The translations under genes and the position numbers were made by a program. A DNA stretch of 64,000 bases from the sequence record PX880099.1. One strand, 5' to 3'. Under the pieces are notes generated by a model. The model ran no database searches. It saw nothing but the letters and a program-made list of their open reading frames with translations, and was not told the DNA's origin. Every line of letters starts with the position of its first letter. Position 1 is the stretch's first letter. Below are positions 1-62,424 of this stretch, piece after piece. The stretch comes from a phage.

Positions 1-1
1 G

Positions 2-250
2 ATCGCCCAGGATGTAACAGCCTTTATTAATGCTAATCTTGCCGCTATCTCTGAGGCAATGAGCGACGGCGCAACAGCCAACCAGATCGGGAATGATTTA
101 CATTTTACCCGTAACGGTCACGGCGTAGGATTTTGGGATCGCCCTGAAATATACACCACTAACACGGCGAACCGCCTAACAAATGCAGCTAAGTTTATGC
201 CGAACGTGTCGGCTTACATTGGTGAAGATAATTTGATTTATATTGAATAA
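2..250 (+). CDS. hypothetical protein, 3' fragment (gene starts left of window)
   Basis: Frame open from window edge (codons 2-58, no stop) through ORF 59..250. Confidence 0.4.
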   Translation: MAQDVTAFINANLAAISEAMSDGATANQIGNDLHFTRNGHGVGFWDRPEIYTTNTANRLTNAAKFMPNVSAYIGEDNLIYIE

Positions 251-256
251 AAAGTA

Positions 257-284
257 TTGACACAGATCGCCAGTGTGCTAATAT
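257..284 (+). promoter_or_regulatory. sigma70-like promoter (TTGACA-16-TAATAT) followed by conserved leader CACGTAGGGCGG and hairpin 295-313
   Basis: TTGACA 257-262, TAATAT 279-284; leader hairpin GGGCGGCAATGGTGCCGCC. Confidence 0.6.
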
Positions 285-331
285 TTACCACGTAGGGCGG
301 CAATGGTGCCGCCGATAATGAGGAAAATAAA

Positions 332-631
332 ATGGAAACTATCGCTATTGTTACCGTAGAAAAACTGGTTGTTGGTGATGTGTTCGCGTTAATGGTGCCT
401 AACAGCAGCAAACTGGGCGCTTATGAAGTGATGGACCATAAAAATGAATCATTTGGCGACGGTTGCACAATGGCGGTAAAATCCTTAAAGGATGGAATCA
501 TCCGCCAGGCTAACTGGCACAAAGGGAATCAAGTCGGTTTAATATCAGCTAATTTCTTGCCAGAAGAGCAAACGTTAGACCAACTATCAGGCGGTAAGAC
601 GTTAGCCGAACTACTGGAAACAGCGATCTAA
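332..631 (+). CDS. hypothetical protein (99 aa)
   Basis: ORF with SD GAGGAAAATAAAATG downstream of promoter 257-284. Confidence 0.55.
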   Translation: METIAIVTVEKLVVGDVFALMVPNSSKLGAYEVMDHKNESFGDGCTMAVKSLKDGIIRQANWHKGNQVGLISANFLPEEQTLDQLSGGKTLAELLETAI

Positions 632-639
632 TCAACAAA

Positions 640-655
640 GGGGCGGCAACGCCCC
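640..655 (+). other. GC-rich stem-loop GGGGCGGCAACGCCCC (intergenic; no U-tract)
   Basis: Perfect 6-bp stem with GCAA loop between ORFs; near-identical copy at 922-937. Confidence 0.5.
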
Positions 656-675
656 ACATCAGAAAGGAAAAGATT

Positions 676-912
676 ATGAGTATTGCAACAGTATTAAACG
701 CCGTTAAAACCGCTGAATCATCCGGCTTGCATGTTGAGCTTATAGATCAACCAGGTGGCGATCTCCTTGTCCAGGTTTACCCGCCGAAAGTAGGGGATGA
801 TTATTATTGGGCTTATTCTGATACGTTCGAACAAGTAGACACGAAAGCGATCACGGCTTTTATTTTAAAAGCTATTGAAGAAAATAACTTTCATCATAAC
901 ATCAATCAATAA
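676..912 (+). CDS. hypothetical protein (78 aa)
   Basis: ORF with SD AGGAAAAGATTATG. Confidence 0.5.
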   Translation: MSIATVLNAVKTAESSGLHVELIDQPGGDLLVQVYPPKVGDDYYWAYSDTFEQVDTKAITAFILKAIEENNFHHNINQ

Positions 913-921
913 ACCATAAGC

Positions 922-937
922 GGGGCGGTAACGCCCC
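922..937 (+). other. GC-rich stem-loop GGGGCGGTAACGCCCC
   Basis: Second copy of hairpin family seen at 640-655. Confidence 0.5.
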
Positions 938-966
938 ATTAAACGCAATAGGAAGAGGATAGACGC

Positions 967-1257
967 ATGAAAAACATGATCGCAGTAGTTGCCCTAGTTG
1001 TTGGTATTAACGCGCCTGTACTGGCTAATGAGTTGTCAGAATCCATCACGCTAACCGATATCAACGCAATAAACCGGATCGGCGTTAATTATCGCCTATG
1101 CCTTGCCGCTAAAACTTTCCAGGACGGCACGACAGAATACCACGGATTCGAGGGTATCCGCTGCGGTGAGCTTGCACGCGACCTTAAAGAAGATCCAGAC
1201 CTTGAGGCCATACCGATGACCGTAAACGGTAAAGCTTACGTAAACCGCCAACAATGA
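967..1257 (+). CDS. hypothetical secreted protein (N-terminal signal-peptide-like segment)
   Basis: N-terminus MKNMIAVVALVVGINAPVLA is hydrophobic and signal-like. Confidence 0.5.
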   Translation: MKNMIAVVALVVGINAPVLANELSESITLTDINAINRIGVNYRLCLAAKTFQDGTTEYHGFEGIRCGELARDLKEDPDLEAIPMTVNGKAYVNRQQ

Positions 1258-1388
1258 GAAAGGTAATCATCACAATGGGGATCGTAGTAGCAACGCTGGC
1301 GCTTATCCCCTTCATGGTTGAACATGTGCTGATCAGTGTTGTCCTTGTAGTCAGTGACCTATTGGAAACGGTTGGCACCTGGTTTTAA
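1254..1388 (+). CDS. small hydrophobic membrane peptide (44 aa)
   Basis: ATGA overlap with upstream stop; translation MRKVIITMGIVVATLALIPFMVEHVLISVVLVVSD...; below ORF-track size cutoff. Confidence 0.35.
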   Translation: MRKVIITMGIVVATLALIPFMVEHVLISVVLVVSDLLETVGTWF

Positions 1389-1562
1389 GATAATAAATAG
1401 GGCTTGCAATAGTCCTATTTTTTGTTATACTTATTGAACGGGCGGCACCTGGGAGCAGGTGAAGATAATCACCGGAAGATCCCGCTATATATCGATAGCT
1501 AATACCTATCAAACAACAAAACATCAAAGAGATAAACTATCAAATCTTTACAATCCTACCTA

Positions 1563-1591
1563 TTGACACCGGATCACGCTTACATTATTAT
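1563..1591 (+). promoter_or_regulatory. sigma70-like promoter with CACGTAGGGCGG leader and hairpin
   Basis: TTGACA 1563-1568, TATTAT-like -10, then TCACGTAGGGCGGGAATGTTTCCCGCC. Confidence 0.6.
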
Positions 1592-1639
1592 TTATCACGT
1601 AGGGCGGGAATGTTTCCCGCCTGATTTAGGAGTCATATC

Positions 1640-1873
1640 ATGATCGAACAAATTAAAAGCACTAAACCAAATGTTAACGGTAATGTTTCTCACTTTATCG
1701 GGGATAATGAAAGAGGTACACCGTACGCCGCCGTAACCGTTCAACCGAACGGGGATTATTGGTTTACCGTGTACGGATCTTACTCTTTTGGACGTTCGGC
1801 ACATGATAAGATCTTGCAAGTGGTTAAGCCTACTGGGAAGAATATCACAGCAGAAAAATTTTATAAAAAATAG
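1640..1873 (+). CDS. hypothetical protein (77 aa)
   Basis: ORF with SD AGGAGTCATATCATG after promoter 1563. Confidence 0.55.
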   Translation: MIEQIKSTKPNVNGNVSHFIGDNERGTPYAAVTVQPNGDYWFTVYGSYSFGRSAHDKILQVVKPTGKNITAEKFYKK

Positions 1874-1874
1874 C

Positions 1875-1903
1875 TTGCTTTATATACCCTGTTAACTTAT
1901 AGT
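1875..1903 (+). promoter_or_regulatory. sigma70-like promoter (TTGCTT-17-TATAGT) with GCGTAGGGCG leader
   Basis: -35 1875-1880, -10 1898-1903, leader TATTGCGTAGGGCGAGC. Confidence 0.5.
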
Positions 1904-1951
1904 TATTGCGTAGGGCGAGCAATACAGCAAGCCCACAAAGAGGAAAATAAA

Positions 1952-2320
1952 ATGAGCAAATCAGCAATTAAAGCACTTGAAAAAGCACAAGAAGTGATCG
2001 CAACGTCAACCACTGGCGCAAAGGTTAATCTCGTTTGTTATCTGACAGATGAAACTATCCGTAAAAATTGGCGTAATGCTGATTTACTGGCTTGCTTATT
2101 GATTAATAGTGTCGCTAATGCTTTCCAGTGTGAAACAGCCGAGAGCCTGGAGGAAAACTTGTTTGATAATATGGATCAAGCCATTGAAACCTATATACAA
2201 TCAAACCTGGATAGCTGGAACAGTAAAACATGGCCCGACAATTTACGCGATACAACTGATCAACTGATCCGCCTTGCCCTGATGGTTGAACGCGATAACG
2301 TTTACAACAGCACAAAGTAA
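1952..2320 (+). CDS. hypothetical protein (122 aa)
   Basis: ORF with SD GAGGAAAATAAAATG. Confidence 0.55.
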   Translation: MSKSAIKALEKAQEVIATSTTGAKVNLVCYLTDETIRKNWRNADLLACLLINSVANAFQCETAESLEENLFDNMDQAIETYIQSNLDSWNSKTWPDNLRDTTDQLIRLALMVERDNVYNSTK

Positions 2321-2330
2321 GATTATACAA

Positions 2331-2356
2331 GGGCGCACTAAGCGCCCTTTAACGTA
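2331..2356 (+). terminator. intrinsic terminator-like hairpin GGGCGCACTAAGCGCCC + TTT
   Basis: 7-bp GC stem followed by short T run; sister copy at 2895. Confidence 0.5.
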
Positions 2357-2385
2357 AAGAAATGTAAATAATGCGCTATCCCCTA

Positions 2386-2414
2386 TTGACAGGGGATCGG
2401 CGTTATATTATATT
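2386..2414 (+). promoter_or_regulatory. sigma70-like promoter (TTGACA-17-TATATT)
   Basis: TTGACA 2386-2391; TATATT 2409-2414. Confidence 0.5.
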
Positions 2415-2459
2415 TAACTTACTGGCAGCAAACAACGAAACGAAACAAAGGACAACATC

Positions 2460-2879
2460 ATGAACATTAAATCAAATAATCCAGCTTACTCCTTCGATAA
2501 CGCTTTTTGTCACGGTAGCGCCGCCAAAGGCTTCGAAATCGATGGTAAATTGGTTATCGTGAACGTTGACGGGGAAGAGGTTGCAGTGTATCCGGTAAAC
2601 GATGTTAAAAGCCGTTTACAATGCCGCATGGATGTTACCGCATATCAGCTTGATCCGGTCCGTGTAGTTGCCTTGGTGTTAGAGGAAGAGATCAAAGCAA
2701 TGCATCACAGTAATAAGTTTATTGGTGACGCGCAGGATAATATGAACGTTTGCCGCCATAAAGTTAATGAAGCATTGAAAGAATGCGGTTTTAAGGATCT
2801 GATGATTAAACGTGATGAAAAATTCCGCTTTCGTAATGACCTGGCAAACCGGATCTACTCAATCTATGAAGCGTTATAA
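2460..2879 (+). CDS. hypothetical protein (139 aa)
   Basis: ORF with SD AAAGGACAACATCATG. Confidence 0.55.
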   Translation: MNIKSNNPAYSFDNAFCHGSAAKGFEIDGKLVIVNVDGEEVAVYPVNDVKSRLQCRMDVTAYQLDPVRVVALVLEEEIKAMHHSNKFIGDAQDNMNVCRHKVNEALKECGFKDLMIKRDEKFRFRNDLANRIYSIYEAL

Positions 2880-2894
2880 TTGACAACAAAACAA

Positions 2895-2920
2895 GGGCGC
2901 ACCAAGCGCCCTTTCTTTTT
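2895..2920 (+). terminator. rho-independent terminator GGGCGCACCAAGCGCCC + TTTCTTTTT
   Basis: GC stem followed by T-rich tract; closes the left gene block. Confidence 0.65.
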
Positions 2921-3505
2921 GCCCGAACAATATTGATAGCTTTCGCCTATGAAAAACCGACACAGAACAAAACTGAATAAATCGCGGTATCGAGCTAATC
3001 AACCAGCAAACGAATAACCATACCTCCCAGGGTTACAGGCTGTTAGAGAGCCATTTAGAGCGGTTAAAATCGATCAACAACCAACAACAAACCATCAAAA
3101 ACACCCTTTTACCTCCTTTCTAGTGCAATGATAACCATTATCATCTACCCATGATTATCTATGCAATATAAGCGCATAATTATAATGTTGATAATAGTTC
3201 GCAACAACTAACCAACAAACAACATAAAACAATAAGCAAACTAATCATAATCAAAGGAATAATAGCAAGATGATTGATAACGACAAACAATCAAACCATG
3301 ATGAATACTAAGCAAGATAACGATAACACGACAAAACAACCAACTAACGAACAATAACAAACGAAACCATTAAAATAATAACTATTAGCAAAATAGTGCA
3401 TGAATGAAATCATTACAAAACGAATCATTCATAGAGTCATCATTAGCACGCTATGCCGGACACATAGCGAGCTAATAATAAGCCAACTACACCCCAACAA
3501 TCATA

Positions 3506-3568
3506 ACCATCGGTGATGGTTATTTCTTGTTACTGCGTAGCTTGCAATAATTGCAAGCGTAATGACGC
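3506..3568. repeat. cluster of short inverted repeats inside the ORF-free region
   Basis: ACCATC-GGT-GATGGT (3507-3521); GCTTGCAA-TAA-TTGCAAGC (3540-3558); GCGT-AATG-ACGC (3557-3568). Confidence 0.6.
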
Positions 3569-4200
3569 TTACACTTATTGCGCTGGCTTATTATTAGCAT
3601 TATATGTAATTACCAAGATCATAACATTAGCGCAATAACAATAATCATTGTGGTAATTACGTAAGGAAACAATTAGCATGGCAATAATTATGGGGGCAAT
3701 GGGAGGATGATTATCATCATTCCGATACATTGCACACTATGCACATAATAGAATAAAAAGCAATAATTTTGGGGGCGAAATGTTACCGCCACAGGCGGGA
3801 ATGTTGAGCAAGTTCTCTTAAACGTAAATAAAATCAGAATAATCTTGATTTATTTTAGTTTTTATGTTAATAAACGTTTAAATAATAATCATTCTCATAT
3901 AAATAATAGTCTGCTTGTCATGAGCGGGATTAGTTGACAATGTTCCGTCATATGATGAGGTTGCCAAGCCATTGATAAATAAGTGTTTGTGTGATTTATA
4001 ATCAGGTGGCCCACCTTGTCGCTATGTTGGCATGAGCCTTGCATAAGTCATTGAATACGAATGATAATTATTCTCATTCGCATGATATTTGGGAATTGTC
4101 GCTGCGTGGACCTGACGGCCCGAAAATTCGCGTTAAGCACTTCTTACGTATGCACCATGATTTTTGCCATATCATATTGATTCTATTAGATATTCTTGCC

Positions 4201-4392
4201 ATGATTGCCATGAAACAGGGTGTCCCGAAATAATCTCTCCCCGTAGATATTTTGGGTTACTTTTTATACAAGAGTGGGGTGTCAAAAATAATCGGTATAT
4301 ATGGGATAATTGATAGGAATCCCCTATGATAATTCGATTGTAATTCCCTAAGATTGATCGTATGATGTTGGTGATTAATGATTGCCATGAAA
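4201..4392. repeat. direct repeats upstream of first early gene
   Basis: ATGATTGCCATGAAA at 4201 and 4378; GGGTGTC(CCG/AAA)AAATAATC at 4218 and 4277. Confidence 0.6.
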
Positions 4393-4419
4393 GATGGCTA
4401 ACGATGAGAGGAGATTATC

Positions 4420-4794
4420 ATGCAAGAGAGTAAAAATGTTCCGTTGAGCAGTGCAACATTGCTTCGCTTCTATAAAGCATGGATTGCCAACTATCCTGCA
4501 ATGAATCGCACAACGAGTGGCTTATGTGGTTGTCTGGTAGATTATGTAGATGATTTTGTTGGTGAGACAACTAGAGAAGAAGATAGAAGATGGCGTGATC
4601 ATTTGTTGGACCGTTTGAAATATGAAATGAGGAAACAATTTACATGTGCAGGGTTGGACTACAATCTTCCGTTCAATGCAGATTGCATGGATTACCTTTC
4701 AGAGTGTATAAACTTGGCGTGTCATACCAACACGTTACGTCTTCAATGGGTGAAAGACAGAATTGAAGATGCAAATAATGCTTGCATTGAATAA
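4420..4794 (+). CDS. hypothetical protein, paralog family A (member 1 of 5)
   Basis: SD GAGAGGAGATTATCATG; shares FYKAW..GLCGCL..LPF..WVKDR motifs with 9603, 12928, 16225, 17530. Confidence 0.6.
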   Translation: MQESKNVPLSSATLLRFYKAWIANYPAMNRTTSGLCGCLVDYVDDFVGETTREEDRRWRDHLLDRLKYEMRKQFTCAGLDYNLPFNADCMDYLSECINLACHTNTLRLQWVKDRIEDANNACIE

Positions 4795-4843
4795 AGATGT
4801 TTGTATAATGGATGACATAACAGATAGCCAATGAGGAGATGAA

Positions 4844-5053
4844 ATGAAGAATTTGAAAACTGTCACAATGTTCTTGACTAATCCTACACGTGTGCAAGCA
4901 CTGGCTAAAGCCAGCCGTGTAGCTGTAGAATTCCAAAACTTTAAGCCGTCCGTTGTGACAGGCAGTGAAACGTGTGTTATCGATTTCATTAACGAATACT
5001 TCCGAGGGAATCCGGTTGGTCGTTACTTTATTAAGGGTCTGAAGGATGCATAG
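4844..5053 (+). CDS. hypothetical protein (69 aa)
   Basis: ORF with SD GAGGAGATGAAATG. Confidence 0.5.
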   Translation: MKNLKTVTMFLTNPTRVQALAKASRVAVEFQNFKPSVVTGSETCVIDFINEYFRGNPVGRYFIKGLKDA

Positions 5054-5054
5054 C

Positions 5055-5276
5055 ATGAAACGCATGAAAATTCGTATTGAGAATGATGGTGGTTATAAAG
5101 GACTTACCCGTGCAAAATTCCCACTTGTGTTGGAAGCTACGGTGGAATACAGTGGGCTTGCTCATGTGCGATTCTCGAAGATGATGGAAGTGCAGGAATG
5201 GTTTTGGGACGAGATAGATGCACGAGAAGGGGAAGATTATGTTTTCTTTCCTCACGAATATGAAATTGTTTATTAA
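5055..5276 (+). CDS. hypothetical protein (73 aa)
   Basis: ATG 5055 immediately after upstream stop, SD AAGGA 9 nt upstream; track ORF starts 5046. Confidence 0.45.
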   Translation: MKRMKIRIENDGGYKGLTRAKFPLVLEATVEYSGLAHVRFSKMMEVQEWFWDEIDAREGEDYVFFPHEYEIVY

Positions 5277-5288
5277 AGGTTGTATGCA

Positions 5289-5528
5289 ATGATCACACCA
5301 CAACAAAATGAAGCAGCAATGGATCTTCTTGATAGTTTGTATTTCGATAATTGGTACTCTGAATGTGAATGGATGAATATGCAAACTCTGAAAGAGAAGA
5401 CAAAAGCGTTGATTACAGTAGATCAATTTCTTGCAGAGACGGAAAGAATGAATTATGATATGGCATCTCGCGCACGACGCGTTTCCATTTTCAATAAAAT
5501 GTTAGCATTATGGGGAGGTAGAAAATGA
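5289..5528 (+). CDS. hypothetical protein (79 aa)
   Basis: Track ORF begins at TTG 5280; first ATG at 5289 with SD AAAGG. Confidence 0.45.
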   Translation: MITPQQNEAAMDLLDSLYFDNWYSECEWMNMQTLKEKTKALITVDQFLAETERMNYDMASRARRVSIFNKMLALWGGRK

Positions 5529-5986
5529 GACAATTCACTATACTGGCAGCTTATGTGCAATGTGTTCACGATTATGTTAGTGCTCATACAGGTTTGCTGG
5601 AAGTTACCAGTAAAATTGAAGGTAATATGGGTACTGTCTGTGTGCAACATACTTTATCCAATGTGCCGTTTAAAGTGTTCACTGTTGTAGCTGCCGATTA
5701 CAATCGTGTAGATGTGCGTTTCTTGGATCATAATTTTCGTAACGCACTAGATAATATCGAAGATTATCTTCCCGTGAAACCTTTGTCATTTCCACCAAGT
5801 CGTGCAAATAATGTAGTGACAAATCTTAATGAAAGAAATGTGGCTATGCACAAAAAAGTCCGTCAACTGAAAATGCTGATGGAAATGCAAGAAGAGATTG
5901 AAAAAGAACTGAAAGAAGATTTTGGTATGCTTCCAAAAGACGCTTTGAAATGGTATGATGAACTAGGAGGAGAAAGTTATGAATAA
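5525..5986 (+). CDS. hypothetical protein (153 aa)
   Basis: SD GGGGAGGTAGAAAATG; ATGA overlap with upstream gene. Confidence 0.55.
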   Translation: MRQFTILAAYVQCVHDYVSAHTGLLEVTSKIEGNMGTVCVQHTLSNVPFKVFTVVAADYNRVDVRFLDHNFRNALDNIEDYLPVKPLSFPPSRANNVVTNLNERNVAMHKKVRQLKMLMEMQEEIEKELKEDFGMLPKDALKWYDELGGESYE

Positions 5987-6173
5987 AGGAACTACTGTAT
6001 ATTTAGTGACTAAGAACACCCCAGGTTGGAATCAGTGCACAACGACTCCATATAAGATTTGTGCAACACTGGAACTAGCACAACGTGCAGAAGCGGAAGT
6101 TGATGCTATGCGATACAGCTACGGGGAGATCATTCCTTTCACTCTGGAACAAGAAGGAGCACATAGTGTTTAA
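5979..6173 (+). CDS. hypothetical protein (64 aa)
   Basis: SD AGGAGGAGAAAGTTATG. Confidence 0.5.
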   Translation: MNKGTTVYLVTKNTPGWNQCTTTPYKICATLELAQRAEAEVDAMRYSYGEIIPFTLEQEGAHSV

Positions 6174-6621
6174 GGTAGGGTTTACTTATAAATTCAAAAG
6201 CGTTGCTGACCAAGGAGATATGGCAACACATGACAAAGCAAATATTGCTGTTTGCCAAGCGATTGGAAACGAAGTTTTCAAAGTTATGAATACAGATGAT
6301 AAGTATGGTCATGTTCTTGAGTTTTATATCAATGGTACCCTCTATACAGCAGGTGTTACCCCAGGGTTTAATTCGTATACTTATTTGATTGATAACGAAG
6401 AATTTAAATATTTTGAAGAAGTAAAGGAGGAAACAATGGGTAAAGCAGAACCACAATGGCATGTTGTGATCGTAGGATCAGAGTGTGTAGATGTTTGTTC
6501 TAGTTTTGAAAAAGCTTCTGAAGTCGCTACAAAAGCTAAGAAGGACTATCCGTCGAAGACGGTTGAGATTTACGCTCGTGTTGCAGTAGCAAACGCCACA
6601 ATCACTATTGATAAGGAGTAA
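6166..6621 (+). CDS. hypothetical protein, tandem paralog family B (member 1 of 4)
   Basis: GTG start 6166 after SD GAAGGAG; N-terminus VFKVGFTYKFKS matches the MFKVGF.Y.FKS starts of the next three genes. Confidence 0.5.
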   Translation: MFKVGFTYKFKSVADQGDMATHDKANIAVCQAIGNEVFKVMNTDDKYGHVLEFYINGTLYTAGVTPGFNSYTYLIDNEEFKYFEEVKEETMGKAEPQWHVVIVGSECVDVCSSFEKASEVATKAKKDYPSKTVEIYARVAVANATITIDKE

Positions 6622-8876: not shown

Positions 8877-9110
8877 ATGAAAGGTAACAAGATGAAAGTT
8901 AATCAGGTACCGAGCGCATACACTCTGTGGCTTGCGCGAGCGTTAAACCAGACGATCAAAAATCCTAAGAAGCCAATGAAGAGTGGGAAGAAGTTTATGT
9001 CTAAGGGCAAAACAACCTTTGGCTTCACTCGTATGTCTGTTAAGATGAAAAGACTGGGGTATAAGCCAAACTACGCTCGTTACCCTTCCGAATACAACTG
9101 GTTTGATTAA
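8877..9110 (+). CDS. hypothetical basic protein (77 aa)
   Basis: ATG 8877 after SD AAGGAGG; Lys/Arg-rich. Confidence 0.5.
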   Translation: MKGNKMKVNQVPSAYTLWLARALNQTIKNPKKPMKSGKKFMSKGKTTFGFTRMSVKMKRLGYKPNYARYPSEYNWFD

Positions 9111-9125
9111 AGAGGAGAACAAAAC

Positions 9126-9410
9126 ATGAAAACATCTATTCGCGTGAAACATGATCCAAACAGCAGTTACCCATACGCGTATGTTGAACGTCATGAAGGA
9201 GACTATTACACCATAAAACGTAAAGTCCCAACTGATACAGGGTTTAACTTCGATGTTATCGCACTGGATGATCAAGGTGTTGATAATCTGGTGAACGCAT
9301 TACTCGCATTGAAGGAAGTACGACATGAAAATCAGACTAAAGGTAAAGTGGCTTTCGATTCTTGTGATCGTTTAGCCGAAGAGATTGCCGAATGGCGTGA
9401 CACTAACTAA
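9126..9410 (+). CDS. hypothetical protein (94 aa)
   Basis: SD AGAGGAGAACAAAACATG. Confidence 0.55.
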   Translation: MKTSIRVKHDPNSSYPYAYVERHEGDYYTIKRKVPTDTGFNFDVIALDDQGVDNLVNALLALKEVRHENQTKGKVAFDSCDRLAEEIAEWRDTN

Positions 9411-9425
9411 AACAGGAGAAAGATT

Positions 9426-9602
9426 ATGGCTACTTTTCAACAACTGAAAGATGTTTCACGTTTAGTAAGAAAAATCCGAGAAGCAGACGCTGCTGTGCGA
9501 AATGCACTAACGCCAGCAGAGCGTGAAGATCTTGAAGAGGAGGTGAAAACAGCCGAGAATGCTTTTGCTGCGTATCTTTCAACACTGTATACAGGAGGTT
9601 AA
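9426..9602 (+). CDS. hypothetical protein (58 aa)
   Basis: SD AGGAGAAAGATTATG; fills gap; below ORF-track cutoff. Confidence 0.45.
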   Translation: MATFQQLKDVSRLVRKIREADAAVRNALTPAEREDLEEEVKTAENAFAAYLSTLYTGG

Positions 9603-9917
9603 ATGTCAGAAGAACTTAAAGAATTTTATCAGGCATATCATAACTGGCTATTAGCTGGTGCTCCAGATAATAATCCTTTCTGGCATGATAAAGGGTTATG
9701 TAGCTGCCTATATCTTTGGTCTGGTGGTTATGATGACCTAAATTATGAAATGCAAATGCAATTCCGCGAAGCAGGTTTGTCTGAAGAATACCCGTTTGAT
9801 GATGGGGATTGGTTTAAATATGATTTTGCACAAAGAAACGGGCTGCTACATTTGAATGCTGCTCGTATAAAATGGGTAAAAGATCATGTCACACAGGAGG
9901 ATGTGCAATGCCTATAG
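9603..9917 (+). CDS. hypothetical protein, paralog family A (member 2)
   Basis: FYQAYHNWLLAGAPDNNPF..GLCSCL..IKWVKDH. Confidence 0.6.
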   Translation: MSEELKEFYQAYHNWLLAGAPDNNPFWHDKGLCSCLYLWSGGYDDLNYEMQMQFREAGLSEEYPFDDGDWFKYDFAQRNGLLHLNAARIKWVKDHVTQEDVQCL

Positions 9918-10108
9918 TGTTTGTTTTCTTGGCAATTGTTATGGTGGTTCTTTTCGCTGTATGGCTTTGGGATTTTGACCCAGGAGCCGCGCAGCAAAGA
10001 GCTACAGACTTGAAAGAACAATGTATTGTGCTCAAACATGAACGAAATGCGGAGAAATTTCTTGACCTGGAGTGTGATCGCCTTGTAAGATACAAGCAAG
10101 ATAAATAA
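9908..10108 (+). CDS. small membrane protein (66 aa)
   Basis: ATG 9908 after SD AGGAGG; TM segment IVFVFLAIVMVVLFAVWLW. Confidence 0.5.
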   Translation: MPIVFVFLAIVMVVLFAVWLWDFDPGAAQQRATDLKEQCIVLKHERNAEKFLDLECDRLVRYKQDK

Positions 10109-10122
10109 CCTTGAGGTGCAAA

Positions 10123-10311
10123 ATGGTAATTGAGATTAAACTTGAATATGCTGGGGCTGTTGCCTTGATCGCACAAATGCTTGGAGCAAAGATTGAAGAA
10201 GTGTATATCAACGCCTGGAGCGTAGAGATTGATGTTCCTATGGACAACATTGCTAATCGCTTGCTGGTGGCAGAGTGTGAACGCACCAACATAATCTACA
10301 AAGGAACATAA
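10123..10311 (+). CDS. hypothetical protein (62 aa)
   Basis: ATG 10123 after SD GAGGTG. Confidence 0.45.
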   Translation: MVIEIKLEYAGAVALIAQMLGAKIEEVYINAWSVEIDVPMDNIANRLLVAECERTNIIYKGT

Positions 10312-10312
10312 T

Positions 10313-10534
10313 ATGAAAATTAGAGTTTGTGATGTATTGGGTTATGTTGGTTTTGAGAATGTTCAGATTCCTTTTGTTGTTGAAGCACATCTTGTTAGTG
10401 AGGATATGACAACATTCTTTGTTACGATAGAAGAAATGTCCAAAGTTGAGGGATGGGAGTGGTTTGAAGAAGATGTTTGGGAAGGTTGTGATTACGTATT
10501 TTTCTCTGACGAAGTGAATGTTCTTGCGGAGTAG
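10313..10534 (+). CDS. hypothetical protein (73 aa)
   Basis: ORF directly abutting upstream stop. Confidence 0.5.
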   Translation: MKIRVCDVLGYVGFENVQIPFVVEAHLVSEDMTTFFVTIEEMSKVEGWEWFEEDVWEGCDYVFFSDEVNVLAE

Positions 10535-10536
10535 GT

Positions 10537-10743
10537 ATGTCTTGTTTTACAAAAGCAGTCTCCATATGTAAGAAACAGTATGAAAGTGATTACGGAATAT
10601 TTAATATTCCAGTAGATCATACAGTGTATTGTTCATGTGGTGGCAGAATGAAGAAAACAGTGATTTATGCGGATAATGGAGATGAACTTGTTCCAGTTAT
10701 GGTTTGCAAAGCTTGTCATTCTGTTAAAACATTAAAAGCGTAA
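10537..10743 (+). CDS. zinc-ribbon protein (68 aa)
   Basis: CSCGG...CKAC cysteine pairs. Confidence 0.5.
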   Translation: MSCFTKAVSICKKQYESDYGIFNIPVDHTVYCSCGGRMKKTVIYADNGDELVPVMVCKACHSVKTLKA

Positions 10744-10839
10744 GGAGTCGGGACACCCGACGATTGGAGCTAAAAATTTTGCGTACAACCCTTTCCGCCC
10801 AACAGGGGGCGCATCGGGTAAACAAAGAGGAGAGTTTAT

Positions 10840-11238
10840 ATGAAAAAGATTATCGTAGGTTTATTGTTACTCATTGCATCTCTTGGAACAGCGAATGCAT
10901 CTCAAGTTTATGAGTGTGTATCAGACGTAGTTGTTAAAAATCTGAAAGGTGAAGTGATTTCTGGTCCTAAGAAAATGGCTTCTGTTGTCATTAATAAAGA
11001 CAACTCCTTTATCCTTAAAAATTCGGGTGGTGCTTTGATGAGCGGTATTCTTCAAAACACAGGAGGAAAGAGTAAAGATGGAAGTTCTATGTACGGTTCA
11101 CAGCAGTTTATTGGCACTACCGAAGTTGTGATGATGCGCACAGAGTATCGAGATACTTTAGCTTGGTTTGCATTTCTAAAAAATGATAAAACAATAACGA
11201 ATGTTCTTACTCTAGAAGCTGATTGTACGCAACGATAA
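10840..11238 (+). CDS. secreted protein with signal peptide (132 aa)
   Basis: MKKIIVGLLLLIASLGTANA signal-like N-terminus; SD AGAGGAGAG. Confidence 0.55.
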   Translation: MKKIIVGLLLLIASLGTANASQVYECVSDVVVKNLKGEVISGPKKMASVVINKDNSFILKNSGGALMSGILQNTGGKSKDGSSMYGSQQFIGTTEVVMMRTEYRDTLAWFAFLKNDKTITNVLTLEADCTQR

Positions 11239-11246
11239 GGGGATTT

Positions 11247-11693
11247 ATGACTAAAGTGAGGCATTACGCTGTAAACTGCAACGATGCTTGGCGTTTGTGT
11301 CCTGATGATCCGACAGAAGGCACATTTGTAAGATATGAGGATTATAAAGAGTTATCGGATGCTGTGATCGCATTGTTAACTGATATCCGTTCACGTTATC
11401 CAGGACAAGATTTCACTTGCCCTCACATCAAACTTCTTGCTTGTCTGGTAGAAGGTGAGAAAGAAGTGGAAGATGGCTTCAAGCGTGTAGAGTATCAAGG
11501 TGAAACTTTAGAGGTTCCTGAATTTGTTAATTATATTGCAACAGATTCGAGTGGCGAGCGTTATGGCTACAGCCATAAGCCAGAGATTCCTGATTGGATT
11601 CCCGCTTGGAGATATTCCGTTAGGACCGGAGACTATATCTTCCTTGGTGTAGGTAGTAGTAAGGATTGGCGTTTCTCTTTGACAGAGGTTTAA
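11247..11693 (+). CDS. hypothetical protein (148 aa)
   Basis: ATG 11247 after SD AAGGGGA; track start is TTG 11223. Confidence 0.5.
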   Translation: MTKVRHYAVNCNDAWRLCPDDPTEGTFVRYEDYKELSDAVIALLTDIRSRYPGQDFTCPHIKLLACLVEGEKEVEDGFKRVEYQGETLEVPEFVNYIATDSSGERYGYSHKPEIPDWIPAWRYSVRTGDYIFLGVGSSKDWRFSLTEV

Positions 11694-43857: not shown

Positions 43858-43922
43858 CTCCTCCCAGTATTGTGCTATATTATACTAAAACTAATACTAA
43901 AGTCAATAACTATTTAAACAGA

Positions 43923-59676: not shown

Positions 59677-59751
59677 GGCCCTGTAGCTCAATGGGAGAGC
59701 TGTCGGCTCATAACCGATAGGTAGCTGGATCGAAACCAGCCAGGGCCACCA
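59677..59751 (+). tRNA. tRNA-Met (CAT), elongator type or Ile-lysidine
   Basis: Hand-folded cloverleaf: acceptor GGCCCTG/CAGGGCC, anticodon loop CTCATAA, T-arm GCTGG-ATCGAAA-CCAGC, CCA encoded. Confidence 0.75.
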
Positions 59752-59753
59752 AC

Positions 59754-59828
59754 GTCTTTATGGTGTAATGGATAGCACAGGAGTCTTCTAAACTCTTAGT
59801 CAAGGTTCGATTCCTTGTAAAGACACCA
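59754..59828 (+). tRNA. tRNA-Arg (TCT)
   Basis: Acceptor GTCTTTA/TAAAGAC, anticodon loop CTTCTAA, T-arm CAAGG-TTCGATT-CCTTG, CCA encoded. Confidence 0.75.
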
Positions 59829-60024
59829 GAACATTTTAACATGAATTAGCTCAAGTGATTTGAACCCACTACTGATCATGGTGGCAGAGAATGAGGCAAG
59901 TATGTCAGAAATTATAAACAAAGGCCACGGTTATATTAGAAGACATAAATGCTCGAAGAGCACCGTTCGTGGAGAACGGGGGTTGGTGGAGTCACCATTC
60001 ATGGTAAAATGTTTTAAAAAACTA

Positions 60025-60059
60025 TTGACAACAAACATTATTTTATGTTAGATTATAAG
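60025..60059 (+). promoter_or_regulatory. promoter, tRNA-cluster type (TTGACA-N11-ATGTTAGATT)
   Basis: TTGACA 60025-60030; ATGTTAGAT 60045-60053. Confidence 0.5.
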
Positions 60060-60062
60060 TAT

Positions 60063-60153
60063 GGAAGGGCAAATCGACGTGGCGACGAAAACGGTCTTGA
60101 AAACCGCCGAGCTTGAAAGAGCCTTGGGAGTTCGACTCTCCCTCCTTCCGCCA
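60063..60153 (+). tRNA. tRNA-Ser (TGA), long variable arm, atypical D-arm
   Basis: Acceptor GGAAGGG/TCCTTCC, discriminator G, anticodon arm ACGGT-CTTGAAA-ACCGC like E. coli Ser-UGA, T-arm GGGAG-TTCGACT-CTCCC; D-stem could not be paired by hand. Confidence 0.55.
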
Positions 60154-60158
60154 GATTA

Positions 60159-60244
60159 GGTAGATTGGTGAAATGGTAGCCACAACAGTTTGCTAAACTG
60201 TAGTCGGAAACGGCGTGTAGGTTCGAGTCCTACATCTACCGCCA
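60159..60244 (+). tRNA. tRNA-Ser (GCT), type II
   Basis: Acceptor GGTAGAT/ATCTACC, anticodon loop TTGCTAA, long variable arm, T-arm GTAGG-TTCGAGT-CCTAC. Confidence 0.75.
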
Positions 60245-60415
60245 AGTTATCTTTAATGTAGCTTGTTGCTCTTAGTTGCTTGGTGTAACTTTTTGGAAGG
60301 ATGGCTGCAACCATCTTACTTTAATAGAGTAAACTTTCGGCAGATGGCCCCCACCATCTTACCGATACCTCATAGTCAGTGGTGCGAACACTGGCTATTT
60401 TAAAGATAATTTTAT

Positions 60416-60490
60416 ACATCGTTAGCCAAGCGGTAAGGCACTTGACTTTTAATCAAGGGAGCGAAGGTTCGAATCCTTCACGATGTACCA
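60416..60490 (+). tRNA. tRNA-Lys (TTT)
   Basis: Acceptor ACATCGT/ACGATGT, anticodon arm CTTGA-CTTTTAA-TCAAG, T-arm GAAGG-TTCGAAT-CCTTC. Confidence 0.7.
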
Positions 60491-60495
60491 AACAC

Positions 60496-60582
60496 GTAGG
60501 TATCGCATAGCGGCAATTGCTGGAGACTGTAAATCTCCTGCCCTTCGGGGCTTCGTTGGTTCGAGTCCAACTACCTGCACCA
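60496..60582 (+). tRNA. tRNA-Tyr (GTA), type II
   Basis: Acceptor GTAGGTA/TACCTGC, anticodon arm GGAGA-CTGTAAA-TCTCC, long variable arm, T-arm GTTGG-TTCGAGT-CCAAC. Confidence 0.75.
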
Positions 60583-60589
60583 AATTAAA

Positions 60590-60674
60590 GATGGATTGGC
60601 CTAGTGGTTGGGCGACGGACTGTTAATCCGTGAACGAAAGTTCTAGCAAGGTTCAAATCCTTGATCCATCGCCA
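60590..60674 (+). tRNA. unusual type II tRNA with anticodon GTT (Asn codons) on a Ser/Tyr-like scaffold
   Basis: Perfect acceptor GATGGAT/ATCCATC, discriminator G, 3-bp D-stem GCC/GGC, anticodon arm ACGGA-CTGTTAA-TCCGT, 15-nt extra arm GAACGAAAGTTCTAG, T-arm CAAGG-TTCAAAT-CCTTG. Confidence 0.6.
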
Positions 60675-60753
60675 AATAGTGCTTGTAGAGTTAATAGAAA
60701 CCTCTAGAATTTTCTAGAATTGTAGATATCAAATCCTACCAAGCAAATATTTT

Positions 60754-60828
60754 GCTCCTATCGTATAACGGCTATTACGGTTGCCTTGTAAGCAACTTAT
60801 CAGGGTTCGAGTCCTTGTGGGAGCACCA
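60754..60828 (+). tRNA. tRNA-Thr (TGT)
   Basis: Acceptor GCTCCTA/TGGGAGC, anticodon arm GTTGC-CTTGTAA-GCAAC, T-loop TTCGAGT. Confidence 0.7.
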
Positions 60829-60850
60829 ATTTAACTCTAAAGGAGTGTAT

Positions 60851-61174
60851 GTGACAGAAAAAGAGTTAGAGAAATATTTTAATATCAATGTTTTCGATGG
60901 TTTTGATGATATTGAAGATGTTGAAAGATATTATGAAGTAGAGTTAGATAAGGATAACATTGTAATTCTTTCTGCCACTTATGATTGTGCATATTATGAA
61001 GGTGAATCTCACGTTTATTTCTATGATATGAAAACATCTTTGTTTTATGAAGTACACGCATATCATTGTTCTTGTTATGGCTTAGAAGGTCAGTGGGAAC
61101 CTGAAGAAATAGGTGATTTGAGCTTTACGGTTGCATATCTAAACAGACGTGGTGCATCTACTATTTTAAAATAA
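60851..61174 (+). CDS. hypothetical protein inside tRNA cluster (107 aa, GTG start)
   Basis: SD TAAAGGAG then GTG 60851; track ORF (from TTG 60752) trimmed because it overlaps tRNA-Thr. Confidence 0.5.
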   Translation: MTEKELEKYFNINVFDGFDDIEDVERYYEVELDKDNIVILSATYDCAYYEGESHVYFYDMKTSLFYEVHAYHCSCYGLEGQWEPEEIGDLSFTVAYLNRRGASTILK

Positions 61175-61188
61175 ATATTAAAAGCCTC

Positions 61189-61218
61189 TTGACAAAGGGG
61201 CTAATAATATGTTAGAGT
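61189..61218 (+). promoter_or_regulatory. promoter, tRNA-cluster type (TTGACA-N11-ATGTTAGAGT)
   Basis: TTGACA 61189-61194; ATGTTAGAG 61209-61217. Confidence 0.5.
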
Positions 61219-61229
61219 AATATTGTTAA

Positions 61230-61304
61230 GCGGGTATAGTGTTAATGGTAGCATATGAGGTTTCCACCCTCCAGGTGCAGGTTCAAGTCCTGTTACTCGC
61301 TCCA
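61230..61304 (+). tRNA. tRNA-Gly (TCC)
   Basis: Acceptor GCGGGTA/TACTCGC, discriminator T, anticodon loop TTTCCAC, T-loop TTCAAGT. Confidence 0.7.
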
Positions 61305-61404
61305 AGATTATTTAAATGGAATCGCTAGAGAAAATTTCTCTTTTCGCTCATGGTTTTCTCCTTCAAACTCTAGCGGTTCTTTTTAAGTGATTTTTTAGTT
61401 TTAT

Positions 61405-61479
61405 TGGAGATTAGCCTAGTGGGAAGGCAACGGCCTTTGAAGTCGTGATGACTAGGTTCGATTCCTAGATCTCCAGCCA
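61405..61479 (+). tRNA. tRNA-Gln (TTG)
   Basis: Acceptor TGGAGAT/ATCTCCA (U1-A72 as in E. coli Gln), discriminator G, anticodon loop CTTTGAA, T-arm CTAGG-TTCGATT-CCTAG. Confidence 0.7.
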
Positions 61480-61486
61480 ATATTTA

Positions 61487-61562
61487 CAGTGCGTAGCGCA
61501 GTTGGTAGCGTGGGAGCTTTGGACGCTTCAGGTCGCAGGTTCGAGTCCTGCCGCACTGACCA
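61487..61562 (+). tRNA. tRNA-Pro (TGG)
   Basis: Acceptor CAGTGCG/CGCACTG (C1-G72), anticodon arm GGAGC-TTTGGAC-GCTTC, T-arm GCAGG-TTCGAGT-CCTGC. Confidence 0.75.
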
Positions 61563-61567
61563 AATTT

Positions 61568-61642
61568 GCAGAGATAGCTGAGACGGATTAGTGCTACCCT
61601 GAAAAGGTAGAAAGGATGGATCGTTACCATCTCTCTGCACCA
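61568..61642 (+). tRNA. tRNA-Phe (GAA), non-canonical T-loop
   Basis: Acceptor GCAGAGA/TCTCTGC, anticodon arm CTACC-CTGAAAA-GGTAG, T-arm GATGG-ATCGTTA-CCATC. Confidence 0.6.
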
Positions 61643-61719
61643 AATAACACCATCCAAGGAGTAGACTTGGTTAACTGTCAATAGCACATTGAGGCTTCTT
61701 ACAGTGGTGTACTTATTAT

Positions 61720-61804
61720 GGCTAAGTGGTGGAATGGTATACACGATACGCTTAGAACGTATTGCCCCAAGGGATTGTGAGTTCGAGTCTCACCTTAGCT
61801 ACCA
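61720..61804 (+). tRNA. tRNA-Leu (TAG), type II
   Basis: Acceptor GGCTAAG/CTTAGCT, discriminator A, anticodon arm ATACG-CTTAGAA-CGTAT, long variable arm, T-arm GTGAG-TTCGAGT-CTCAC. Confidence 0.7.
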
Positions 61805-61819
61805 AATTATTAGATGTTT

Positions 61820-61898
61820 CGCGGGATAGAGGAGTCTGGTCGTCCTCGCCAGTTTCATATGCTGGAGATCGTTGGTTCAAATCCAACTCCCGTTACCA
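61820..61898 (+). tRNA. initiator-like tRNA-fMet (CAT)
   Basis: 5' CGCGGGA like E. coli initiator CGCGGGG; 1:72 mismatch (C/U); A11:U24 in D-stem; anticodon loop TTCATAT; T-arm GTTGG-TTCAAAT-CCAAC. Confidence 0.55.
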
Positions 61899-61917
61899 AA
61901 TTTTGCAAGGAGATAAA

Positions 61918-62331
61918 GTGACAGCCAAGAAATCAGCCCAGTTGGGAATGAACGTAAGTACCGCTACGGGCAGGTTAACAAAAGATATAATGTGGCGACT
62001 GATCGTTCAGACAAATCAGAACATGTGCTTTCATTGCGGTAAAGAAATGACGAGAGAAGACTTCTCCATCGAGCACAAAGTTCCTTGGTTGGATAGTGAA
62101 AACCCACAAGACTTATTTTTTGACTTGGACAATATTGCTTTCAGTCACTTATCCTGTAATGTTGCCGCAGCACGTAAGCCGAACAAAGGTATTATTCCTC
62201 ATGGAACATCATCAGGATATGATACTCACAAATGTAGGTGTGATGCATGCAAAGCAGCAAAAGCTGCAAGACGTAAAAAAGAATACACACCAGAAAAGCG
62301 CAGAGCAACTTACGAGCGTACTGGTAAATAG
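61918..62331 (+). CDS. HNH homing-endonuclease-like protein inside tRNA cluster
   Basis: CFHCGKEM...IEHKVPW...NIAFSHLSCN; GTG 61918 after SD AGGAG; track ORF (from 61762) trimmed because it overlaps tRNA genes. Confidence 0.65.
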   Translation: MTAKKSAQLGMNVSTATGRLTKDIMWRLIVQTNQNMCFHCGKEMTREDFSIEHKVPWLDSENPQDLFFDLDNIAFSHLSCNVAAARKPNKGIIPHGTSSGYDTHKCRCDACKAAKAARRKKEYTPEKRRATYERTGK

Positions 62332-62336
62332 ATAAT

Positions 62337-62419: not shown

Positions 62420-62424
62420 ATTAT

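Follow-up and report, generated by a model that had tools for sequence, protein, structure and literature searches.

Stabilising stem-loops at the 5' ends of E. coli mRNAs, of which that in the ompA 5' UTR was reportedly described by Emory, Bouvet and Belasco in 1992, and the morons of lambdoid phages, said by Juhala et al. in 2000 to be lone genes, added to a phage genome together with a promoter and a terminator, each share part of their layout with the locus described here. The closest known system is that of the promoter-early stem-loop (PeSL) cassettes in the T4-type phages RB49/phi1, PST and nt-1 (Arbiol et al. 2010, PMC2839356; Comeau et al. 2014, PMC4122927), and lambdoid morons are discussed in the first of these papers. 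By analogy of layout, the cassettes we found at one end of a 64-kb stretch of phage DNA (the window) are a variant of the PeSL kind. In both systems, an intergenic composite includes a strong sigma-70-like early promoter (TTGACA-N16/17-TAnnnT in most cassettes here) and a GC-rich stem-loop (GGGC...GCCC-type in PeSLs; -11 to -16 kcal/mol here), copies are clustered among small orphan genes (∼23 in 11.4 kb here), terminators are also present, and gene content differs between close relatives by entire units, the crossovers lying within the composite. The cassettes differ from PeSLs in belonging to Stephanstirmvirinae/Vequintavirinae rather than T4-type phages, the two being likened by layout and not by sequence alignment. 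PeSL stem-loops vary in placement (five variants, most of them within or over the promoter), whereas the hairpins here occupy a single fixed place, 10–13 nt past the -10 and inside the transcript, matching one PeSL subclass only, and they are accompanied by an additional conserved start-region motif, YR-TAGGGCGG. Terminator activity and mini-circles have been demonstrated for PeSLs, while the present cassettes are described from sequence. As in ompA-type leaders, a stable hairpin without a U-run lies within a few bases of the predicted 5' end and before the ribosome-binding site, but here the 5' end is a prediction and the element is multi-copy, common to ∼25 phage genes. Units 1875–2349 and 2386–2921 have the moron layout, but morons occur scattered and without conserved repeats at their flanks, whereas these units are arrayed and have flanking elements in common.

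Judged by similarity, the window is from a phAPEC8-like coliphage, Phapecoctavirus (Stephanstirmvirinae), with phAPEC8_ev052 97.9% identical to it over 4.2 kb. Comparison with relatives' genomes, in which the array extends leftward beyond the window, places positions 1–2930 as the right-hand end, or final quarter, of an ∼11.4 kb array of ∼30 small genes, just inside the right end of the phAPEC8-like genome. The complete genome of a 98%-identical relative holds ∼23 cassettes in a single 11.4 kb block, plus one elsewhere. Proteins of the block match only PHROGs of unknown function, and no known domains were found in them; the 96 aa product of gene 967–1257 has a signal-peptide-like N-terminus, and the 44 aa product of gene 1254–1388 is hydrophobic. 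The cassette was absent from the 5,426 complete E. coli genomes searched, and Rfam covariance models gave no relevant match (E ≤ 1) in window positions 1–4500.

The repeated cassette (∼90 nt) stands upstream of most genes or short gene groups in the array and consists, in order, of TTGACA-N16/17-TAnnnT, YR-TAGGGCGG, the hairpin and a purine-rich ribosome-binding site. Exact copies of CGTAGGGCG occur at 291, 1598 and 1909, three in 64 kb, all on the + strand and within 1–2930, compared with a chance expectation of 0.05 from shuffled sequences (0 of 100 shuffles reached three); copies with one mismatch (5 found, 2.3 expected) were not significantly enriched. Each exact copy begins 7–8 nt past a sigma-70 -10 hexamer and leads into a stable GC hairpin. 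The preliminary description had noted three promoters followed at a fixed distance by a motif and a hairpin, and this was borne out, with TAG starting 9, 9 and 8 nt past the hexamers at 279–284, 1586–1591 and 1898–1903. In the relative's genome, TAG lies 9 nt past the -10 in 16 of 21 cassette copies and 8 nt past it in 4 of 21, and TAGGGCG is found 17 times, always on the + strand and 16 times inside the 11.4 kb block. Covariance model R1 matched the window only at the three leaders, and the relative's genome at ∼23 block sites plus one elsewhere. Coordinates of the features are collected in the table.

Features of the promoter–hairpin array and its right flank in the window
Feature	Position	Strand	Remarks
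Gene, 3' part	1–250	+	387 nt in relatives; closes preceding unit; PHROG of unknown function
Cassette 1 promoter	257–284	+	-35 TTGACA 257–262, 16-nt spacer, -10 TAATAT 279–284
Cassette 1 leader	289–313	+	CACGTAGGGCGG motif; R1 match 285–323, E = 1.4e-10
Small gene, 99 aa	332–631	+
GC hairpin GGGGCGGCAACGCCCC	640–655	+	No U-run, no promoter; left edge of phi92-like segment
Small gene, 78 aa	676–912	+	Near-identical hairpin pair on its two sides
GC hairpin GGGGCGGTAACGCCCC	922–937	+	No U-run; right edge of phi92-like segment
Two overlapping small genes	967–1388	+	967–1257 and 1254–1388
Intrinsic terminator	1395–1426	+	Stem 1395–1420, then T-run; promoter embedded
Non-coding stretch, 126 nt	1437–1562	+	3' of embedded promoter; folding z = -2.1
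Cassette 2 promoter	1563–1591	+	TTGACA-17-TATTAT, -10 at 1586–1591
Cassette 2 leader	1595–1622	+	TCACGTAGGGCGG motif; R1 match 1592–1631, E = 6.5e-10
Small gene, 77 aa	1640–1873	+
Cassette 3 promoter	1875–1903	+	Weak -35 TTGCTT, 17-nt spacer, -10 TATAGT 1898–1903; below consensus-scan threshold, read from the sequence
Cassette 3 leader	1907–1936	+	TGCGTAGGGCG motif; R1 match 1903–1943, E = 4e-5
Small gene, 122 aa	1952–2320	+
GC hairpin AAGGGCGCACTAAGCGCCCTT	2329–2349	+	Weak T-run; terminator-like
Promoter without leader motif or hairpin	2386–2414	+	TTGACA-17-TATATT
Small gene, 139 aa	2460–2879	+	Final gene in array
Intrinsic terminator	2893–2921	+	Stem 2893–2913, then TCTTTTTG; edge of phi92 homology
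Predicted short direct terminal repeat, physical genome end	3807–4135		Outside the 1–2930 finding

The motif has been recorded before under another name. The phAPEC8 record (JX561091) lists at 3202–3221, corresponding to window ∼292–311, the same 20-nt element as a 'putative promoter determined with PHIRE', and the element's repetition upstream of genes would fit a phage-specific promoter. We consider this highly improbable, since PHIRE finds repeated 20-mers and nothing more, and 7–8 nt upstream of every copy there is a near-perfect sigma-70 -35/-10 pair. To our knowledge, a GC hairpin is part of no known promoter architecture. The annotation of the relative's genome lists neither a phage RNA polymerase nor a phage sigma factor, and a study of phage rV5 reported only sigma-70-like promoters and a T4-late-like motif. 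The cassette 1 promoter is itself annotated in phAPEC8 as a 'host dependent promoter'. Where that record calls the element a promoter, we read it as the probable transcribed leader of the sigma-70 promoter immediately 5' of it.

The leader hairpins of cassettes 1 (296–313, arms 296–302/307–313), 2 (1602–1622, arms 1602–1610/1614–1622) and 3 (1913–1934) have predicted stabilities of -14.2, -15.7 and -11.3 kcal/mol, with z-scores from -2.8 to -5.3. The first paired base falls 10–13 nt past the -10 in 55 of the 66 unique cassettes collected from 11 genomes and the window (12 sequence sets). Of the promoter-like sites in the block, 68% have a hairpin at least as stable as -8 kcal/mol behind them, versus 7% elsewhere. 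The same architecture, built on other stems, recurs in phi92, Erwinia phage Hena1, Cronobacter phage PBES02, a Salmonella phage and a Vequintavirus, the position of the cassettes being conserved across two phage subfamilies. RNAalifold returned no consensus structure for the cassette hairpins, and column-wise covariation across them was weak because the stem base, GCGG/CCGC, hardly varies; differences in the inner stem trace to a few sequence classes and not to many independent events.

Such hairpins might act mainly as attenuators or terminators that limit read-through from upstream, so that units are expressed singly, as has been proposed for PeSL stem-loops. In the PeSL work, an RB49/phi1 stem-loop was cloned and its terminator function assayed, and PeSL stem-loops are described there as effective terminators; one PeSL subclass has its stem-loop downstream of the -10, strong promoters are dense in the array, and the copies at 640–655 and 922–937 stand between genes without a promoter. 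We nevertheless regard attenuation as an unlikely main role. Directly 3' of the leader hairpins, where a U-run was looked for, CTCACAAC or GATAATG was found instead, which argues against efficient intrinsic termination, and genuine T-run terminators exist separately at 1395–1426 and 2893–2921. Termination 3–5 nt past the start would also halt the cassette's own transcripts, and blocking of upstream transcription needs no tight spacing to the -10.

The two near-identical pairs of GC hairpins seen in the preliminary description are indeed present, as GGGGCGGYAACGCCCC at 640–655 and 922–937 and as AAGGGCGCACYAAGCGCCCTT at 2329–2349 and 2893–2913, and in relatives the terminator ending the array has a 94%-identical copy at a distance of 3.1 kb to the left of the window. 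The preliminary proposal of one-gene transcription units holds for genes 1640–1873, 1952–2320 and 2460–2879, which have their own promoters, but not for genes 332–631, 676–912, 967–1257 and 1254–1388, for which there is one convincing promoter, at 257, with hairpins lacking a U-run in between and the terminator 1395–1426 at the end. Genes 676 and 967 lack a promoter upstream and retain the hairpin and ribosome-binding region; that 3' of hairpin 640–655 is as found after a full cassette in phi92. The promoter embedded in the terminator at 1395–1431 has its -35 (TTGCAA, 1404–1409) in the loop and its -10 (TATACT) at 1426–1431, and the 126-nt stretch beyond it, which had no match in Rfam, is possibly a small RNA or a long leader.

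The left 2.9 kb had been called GC-richer than the rest, and a windowed comparison confirmed this: GC is 42.9% in 1–2930 versus 38.4% in the remaining window, ranking first among 611 sliding 2930-nt windows (∼3.3 SD over the mean). The excess is modest, with equally GC-rich stretches in the tRNA and tail-fibre regions of the relative's genome, and is the same in coding (42.9%) and intergenic (42.7%) DNA. GC3 is 0.44 in the block and 0.315 elsewhere (Mann-Whitney p = 6e-5), whereas GC1 and GC2 equal those of the rest of the genome. Codon use in the block looks distinct and host-like, with shares of CGC (44% vs 8%), CCG (39% vs 9%) and ATC (52% vs 27%) raised and codons read by phage tRNAs (AGA, GGA, CCA) rarer, and its GC is higher because of these host-like, GC-ending codons. 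Such codons would fit immediate-early expression, before phage tRNAs are available; early timing is deduced here from promoter type, position and codon usage. The suggestion of a separately regulated module accords with the near-consensus sigma-70 promoters, the common leader and the distinct host-like codons.

The elevated GC and the location beside the genome end might instead mark a terminal repeat or a recent foreign island in which the motif is incidental. This is the most improbable of the alternatives, considering that the block occurs once in complete genomes, that GC1 and GC2 match the rest, and that the array keeps its synteny across many Phapecoctavirus genomes, with counterparts in further genera. 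No second copy of the block was found in the complete relative genome, where only cassettes of ∼40–70 nt and one terminator recur. Terminal repeats of relatives (343–519 bp) map to the right of the block; the annotated 343-bp repeat of phi92 maps to window ∼3807–4136, ∼0.9 kb to the right, the predicted site of the terminal repeat and genome end (PMC12695924), and several relatives' records start or end at 3806 and 4134/4135. As far as these comparisons predict, the block adjoins the right genome end and is distinct from the terminal repeat, and the idea of a terminal-repeat region was discarded. Horizontal acquisition, also raised in the preliminary description, applies to single gene units, which were gained, lost and reordered with junctions in cassettes, and not to the block as a whole.

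On the evidence of alignments, relatives differ by whole gene units at cassettes. Neither phAPEC8 nor UP17 has the unit 1607–1899 (gene 1640–1873); the crossover, in TTATYRCGTAGGGCG, falls inside CGTAGGGCG and leaves chimeric cassettes. An additional gene of 192 nt is present in Schickermooser and UP17 between cassettes with common CGTAGGGCGGCAATGGTGCCGC, and insertions in tuntematon and Schickermooser lie at the terminator/promoter 1395–1431. Gene 676–912 is 96% identical to a phi92 gene in a different position, and 5 of 6 internal boundaries of phi92 homology fall in hairpins (307, 645, 925, 1923, 2906). Left breakpoints lie in cassette cores in 9 of 12 cases, the cores making up 24% of the block. 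Since alignment tends, for trivial reasons, to place homology breakpoints inside shared repeats, this enrichment shows the repeats in use as homology and is no proof of a dedicated mechanism.

Crossovers exactly in motif and hairpin would also be expected if TAGGGCGG and the inverted repeat formed a DNA site, either an integron-like recombination or nicking target or an operator at +1 where a protein of the phage or the host silences the early promoters. The motif and the loop (AATGG/AATAG) are conserved beyond the needs of pairing, which would fit protein recognition on DNA, the site extends over the start point, so that a protein bound to it would prevent initiation, and comparable GGGC/GCCC-associated T4 deletions are cited in the PeSL paper. 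A DNA site of this sort seems to us decidedly unlikely, given that distant relatives keep the hairpin's place with unrelated stems, unexpected for one sequence-specific protein, and that identical stretches of 18–22 nt suffice for ordinary homologous recombination. The analysis turned up no candidate recombinase or repressor, and the block's proteins are without known domains. The 26 G.U cells at the stem base favour the transcribed strand, and the sense hairpin is the stabler in 27 cases versus 13 for the antisense (p = 0.04), a small asymmetry among mutually related copies.

We therefore favour, as fairly probable, the reading that these are early promoter–hairpin leader cassettes whose hairpin acts in RNA and which double as homology for the shuffling of units. 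Host RNA polymerase would start at the purine just before TAG; the predicted start is a purine 8 nt past the -10 and preceded by a pyrimidine (G292 or A290 in cassette 1), with 3–5 free bases to the hairpin, a position deduced from the customary distance between -10 and +1. Given such a start, 3–5 unpaired bases would precede a stable stem-loop at the head of each early mRNA. This structure most likely works at the RNA level, where it may shield the transcript's start from 5'-end-dependent decay (RNase E/RppH) and may insulate the ribosome-binding site from upstream RNA. The genes would be expressed immediate-early, ahead of the phage tRNAs, and the repeated cassette sequence could provide homology for deleting, inserting and exchanging units, as in PeSL-type modular shuffling.

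A more speculative and rather unlikely extension is that YR-TAGGGCGG and the hairpin form a dedicated tag, read in RNA by a factor or in DNA by a specific activity. If so, the tag would be conserved across Stephanstirmvirinae and Vequintavirinae. As an RNA tag, it would let a phage or host factor switch ∼25 immediate-early orphan genes on or off together; as a DNA tag, it would make the array work in an integron-like manner in a strictly lytic phage.

The preliminary description had proposed that three promoters in the first 2.9 kb are each followed at a fixed distance by a conserved sequence and a hairpin. We found CGTAGGGCG exactly at all three sites (see table), always on the + strand, compared with 0.05 copies expected, and in each the TAG starts 8-9 nt past the -10 hexamer. 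Every copy leads into a hairpin (-11 to -16 kcal/mol), and the two near-identical pairs of GC hairpins in the block were also confirmed. The motif search was not significant when one mismatch was allowed; exact and model-based searches were. The suggestion that genes here form one-gene transcription units held for three of the eight genes and failed for those at 332-1388, which have a common promoter at 257 and a terminator at 1395-1426.

The first 4.2 kb of the window is 97.9% identical to Escherichia phage phAPEC8_ev052, and matches were obtained to 230 phage records, most of them from Phapecoctavirus (subfamily Stephanstirmvirinae). Using the complete phAPEC8_ev052 genome (150,152 bp) as reference, window position 1 was placed at position 3307 of the record, and an array of small genes was seen to begin at ~145,000, pass over the record junction and end at ~6,185 (window 2,880), so that the window covers only the end of the array. 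The array genes are all on the + strand, 100-560 nt each, with gaps of ~80-90 nt. TAGGGCG occurs 17 times in this genome, always on the + strand, and 16 copies lie inside the 11.4-kb array. Among the promoter-like sites listed, the order of elements in a cassette is TTGACA, 16-17 nt, TAnnnT, 7-8 nt ending in Y-R, TAGGGCGG and a hairpin (frequently GCGGCAATGGTGCCGC or GCGGGAATAGTTCCCGC), which leads through a purine-rich stretch to ATG. Hairpins of -8 kcal/mol or lower stand behind 68% of promoter-like sites in the array vs 7% elsewhere. A covariance model made from 54 leaders matched only the three cassettes in the window, and in the relative's genome ~23 array sites and one other, upstream of a TerC-like gene. 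Near window position 43906, on the - strand, a strong promoter-like TTGACT ... TATAAT is followed 13 nt on by a different GC hairpin, CTGGGAGGAGGTGAGTCCTCCCAT (-14.9 kcal/mol), indicating that the layout of promoter and leader hairpin is not limited to the array, whereas the TAGGGCGG motif is.

Coordinates of cassettes and other features in the window and in the genome of its relative phAPEC8_ev052 (LR597654.1)
Feature	Sequence	Position	Strand	Details
Cassette 1	window	promoter 257; motif 291	+	
Cassette 2	window	promoter 1563; motif 1598	+	
Cassette 3	window	promoter 1875; motif 1909	+	
Imperfect palindromes	window	3128, 3882, 4061		related to ATGAGAATCATTCTCAT
tRNA cluster (14)	window	59677-62500		Met x2, Arg-TCT, Ser, Lys, Tyr, Asn, Thr, Gly-TCC, Gln, Pro-TGG, Phe, Leu-TAG, Ile
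Sole cassette outside the array	LR597654.1	123119-123188	-	TTGACA...TAAGAT atatcacATGAAGCGGGGAATAGTTCCCCGC, upstream of integral membrane protein TerC gene

Each of these elements is very probably an early promoter of host type whose transcripts carry a conserved leader. The phAPEC8 GenBank record labels the motif as a 'putative promoter determined with PHIRE', directly behind a 'host dependent promoter', and the reading that follows this annotation, a phage-specific promoter, remains as an unlikely alternative. A host origin of the cassette was ruled out, since it had zero matches among complete E. coli genomes. An exact 20-mer scan of IMG/VR located TAGGGCGGCAATGGTGCCGC in three unrelated contigs of 36-61 kb, in a GC-richer context, where its TAG seems to act as a stop codon ahead of the hairpin; the contigs had no match in the phage collection, and these copies may be due to chance given the database size, or represent a widespread terminator-like hairpin. 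An Rfam scan of window 1-4500 returned nothing relevant, leaving the leader without an Rfam family. At 1395-1562, a -35 sequence (TTGCAA) lies in the loop of the terminator hairpin and is followed by a -10 sequence (TATACT), and this element is a composite terminator/promoter of the type seen in the promoter-early stem-loop (PeSL) cassettes of T4-type phages. Its promoter would drive a 126-nt non-coding transcript, a candidate small RNA or long leader; the predicted transcript has a fold z of -2.1, is conserved in phAPEC8, and had no match in Rfam.

The cassette layout is also present in phi92 (Justusliebigvirus), Erwinia phage Hena1, Cronobacter phage PBES02, a Salmonella phage and a Vequintavirus, with stems that often differ (e.g., GGGCGACACAACGCCGCCC, GGCCGGGAATGGTTCCCGGTC, GGGGGCAAGACGTTTGCCCCC) and a hairpin that keeps its position, the first paired base lying 10-13 nt past the -10 in 55 of 66 unique cassettes. 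The usual distance from a -10 and the preference for Y(-1)R(+1) put the expected start of transcription at the purine ahead of TAG, and transcripts would then open with RUAG followed by the stem-loop. The sense hairpin is slightly more stable than the antisense (27 vs 13, p = 0.04), because G.U pairs sit at the base of the stem, an asymmetry that weakly favors a role in RNA. RNAalifold gave no consensus structure for the 54-leader alignment because stem lengths vary, and in a count of outer-stem pairs the near-invariant stem base left little column-wise covariation; covariation was therefore not taken as proof. In PBES02 (3878-6400), several promoters carry a CCGGGA-NNNN-TCCCGG hairpin within the -35/-10 spacer, which is the commonest PeSL placement, beside cassettes with leader hairpins, so both placements coexist within the Vequintavirinae.

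In the transcript, the hairpin could protect the 5' end and keep the ribosome-binding site isolated, a role to which we give slightly less than an even chance. It is favored by the tightly fixed distance from start to hairpin, by the G.U pairs on the sense strand, and by the persistence of the hairpin ahead of genes 676 and 967, which have lost the promoter. The absence of a U-run also favors it, and attenuation, as proposed for PeSLs, remains as a rival, as does a DNA site for a regulator or for recombination activity. Readings as a CsrA site, a boxB/nut-like element, a discriminator or a sigma-dependent pause were rejected, having no consistent sequence match across copies. Downstream of the array, at window 9,000-11,500 (LR597654.1 9615-11319), the relative's annotation places genes for a 'goF mRNA metabolism modulator' and an 'RNA metabolism moderator'; if these annotations hold, host RNA decay is a target of the phage, a point relevant to the idea of protection by a 5' hairpin.

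Comparison of related genomes located gene gain and loss at the cassettes. One gene unit (window 1607-1899) is absent from phAPEC8 and UP17, where one chimeric cassette has the cassette 2 promoter in front of the hairpin and ribosome-binding region from cassette 3, with the crossover in TTATYRCGTAGGGCG. Schickermooser and UP17 have an extra 192-nt gene at window ~278-343, flanked by cassettes with CGTAGGGCGGCAATGGTGCCGC in common, and insertions of 200 and 525 nt occupy the terminator hairpin at 1395 in tuntematon and Schickermooser. Cassette cores make up 24% of the array sequence and contain 9 of the 12 left breakpoints found across it. Homology to phi92 is piecewise (7-307, 645-925, 1547-1923, 2906-3000), and five of its six internal edges lie within hairpins. 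The segment 645-925, bounded by a near-identical hairpin pair, is 96% identical to phi92 vs 80-89% for its neighbors, and its phi92 counterpart is located upstream, not downstream, of the homologue of gene 1-250, which makes the near-identical hairpin pairs of the preliminary description the flanks of exchangeable units. The repeats probably mediate gain and loss of genes unit by unit. Alignment breakpoints are drawn trivially to shared repeats, and the junctions show use of the repeats as homology, not a dedicated mechanism.

The block was also described as GC-richer, and in the windowed comparison 1-2930 (42.9% GC vs 38.4% in the rest of the window) ranked first among 611 sliding windows, a modest excess with similar values elsewhere in the relative's genome. 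Coding and intergenic DNA of the block are equally GC-rich. Codon usage differed as well, with GC3 of 0.44 in the block vs 0.315 (p = 6e-5; p = 3e-11 when all 34 array genes are taken together). First and second positions (GC1, GC2) show no change, which places the excess in block genes at third positions. Enriched codons include Arg CGC (44% vs 8%), Pro CCG (39% vs 9%), Ile ATC (52% vs 27%) and Gly GGC (31% vs 11%), which are codons preferred by E. coli. AGA, GGA and CCA are rarer in array genes, and their cognate tRNAs are phage-encoded (59.7-62.5 kb). Host-like codon use fits translation that precedes accumulation of phage tRNAs; recombination-associated GC bias and foreign origin of the units are possible alternatives. 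The relative's annotation places the tRNA cluster on the opposite strand, apparently in error.

A terminal-repeat region had also been suggested, and this was not upheld: when 1-4400 was compared by BLAST with the relative's complete genome, there was no large duplicate, and nothing beyond cassette size recurred. According to a 2025 paper, genomes of Stephanstirmvirinae end in direct terminal repeats (PMC12695924), and such repeats are annotated immediately right of the arrays in phi92 (343 bp) and Hena1 (519 bp). The phi92 repeat aligns at window ~3807-4136, and several relatives' records end at window 3806 or 4134/4135. This makes the array the coding region at the right end of the genome rather than a repeat. 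The 1.5 kb at 2930-4400, which separates the array from the next block of genes, is AT-rich (35.6% GC) and lacks convincing genes. CAACAA-rich runs and the predicted terminal repeat (~3807-4135) both lie in it, as do imperfect palindromes related to ATGAGAATCATTCTCAT, with 5 matches where 0.43 were expected. Similar palindromes were seen in phi92 and Hena1, again in non-coding DNA; they are candidate sites for packaging or replication, or candidate operators.

The closest known system is the PeSL cassette, found in clusters among the orphan genes of T4-type phages; it pairs a sigma-70-like early promoter with a GC stem-loop and mediates modular shuffling and the formation of mini-circles (PMC2839356, PMC4122927). 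Four defining PeSL features were looked for and found in these cassettes. This phage group lies outside the T4-type lineage, and, unlike in PeSLs, the hairpin occupies a single fixed place within the predicted transcript and an extra conserved start-region motif is present. Within the searchable literature library, no account of this leader was found. Phages like phAPEC8, phi92 and rV5 are widely isolated for therapy and biocontrol, and each has ~30 early orphan genes, for which one conserved promoter-leader cassette predicts an immediate-early regulon and its transcript starts. The cassettes are also compact strong promoter/5'-UTR parts for engineering, and they account for the sites of gene gain and loss in these genomes. 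The idea of regulatory cassettes doubling as recombination linkers is thereby extended past T4-type phages, suggesting that cassette linkers are a general route for accessory-gene shuffling in large lytic phages.
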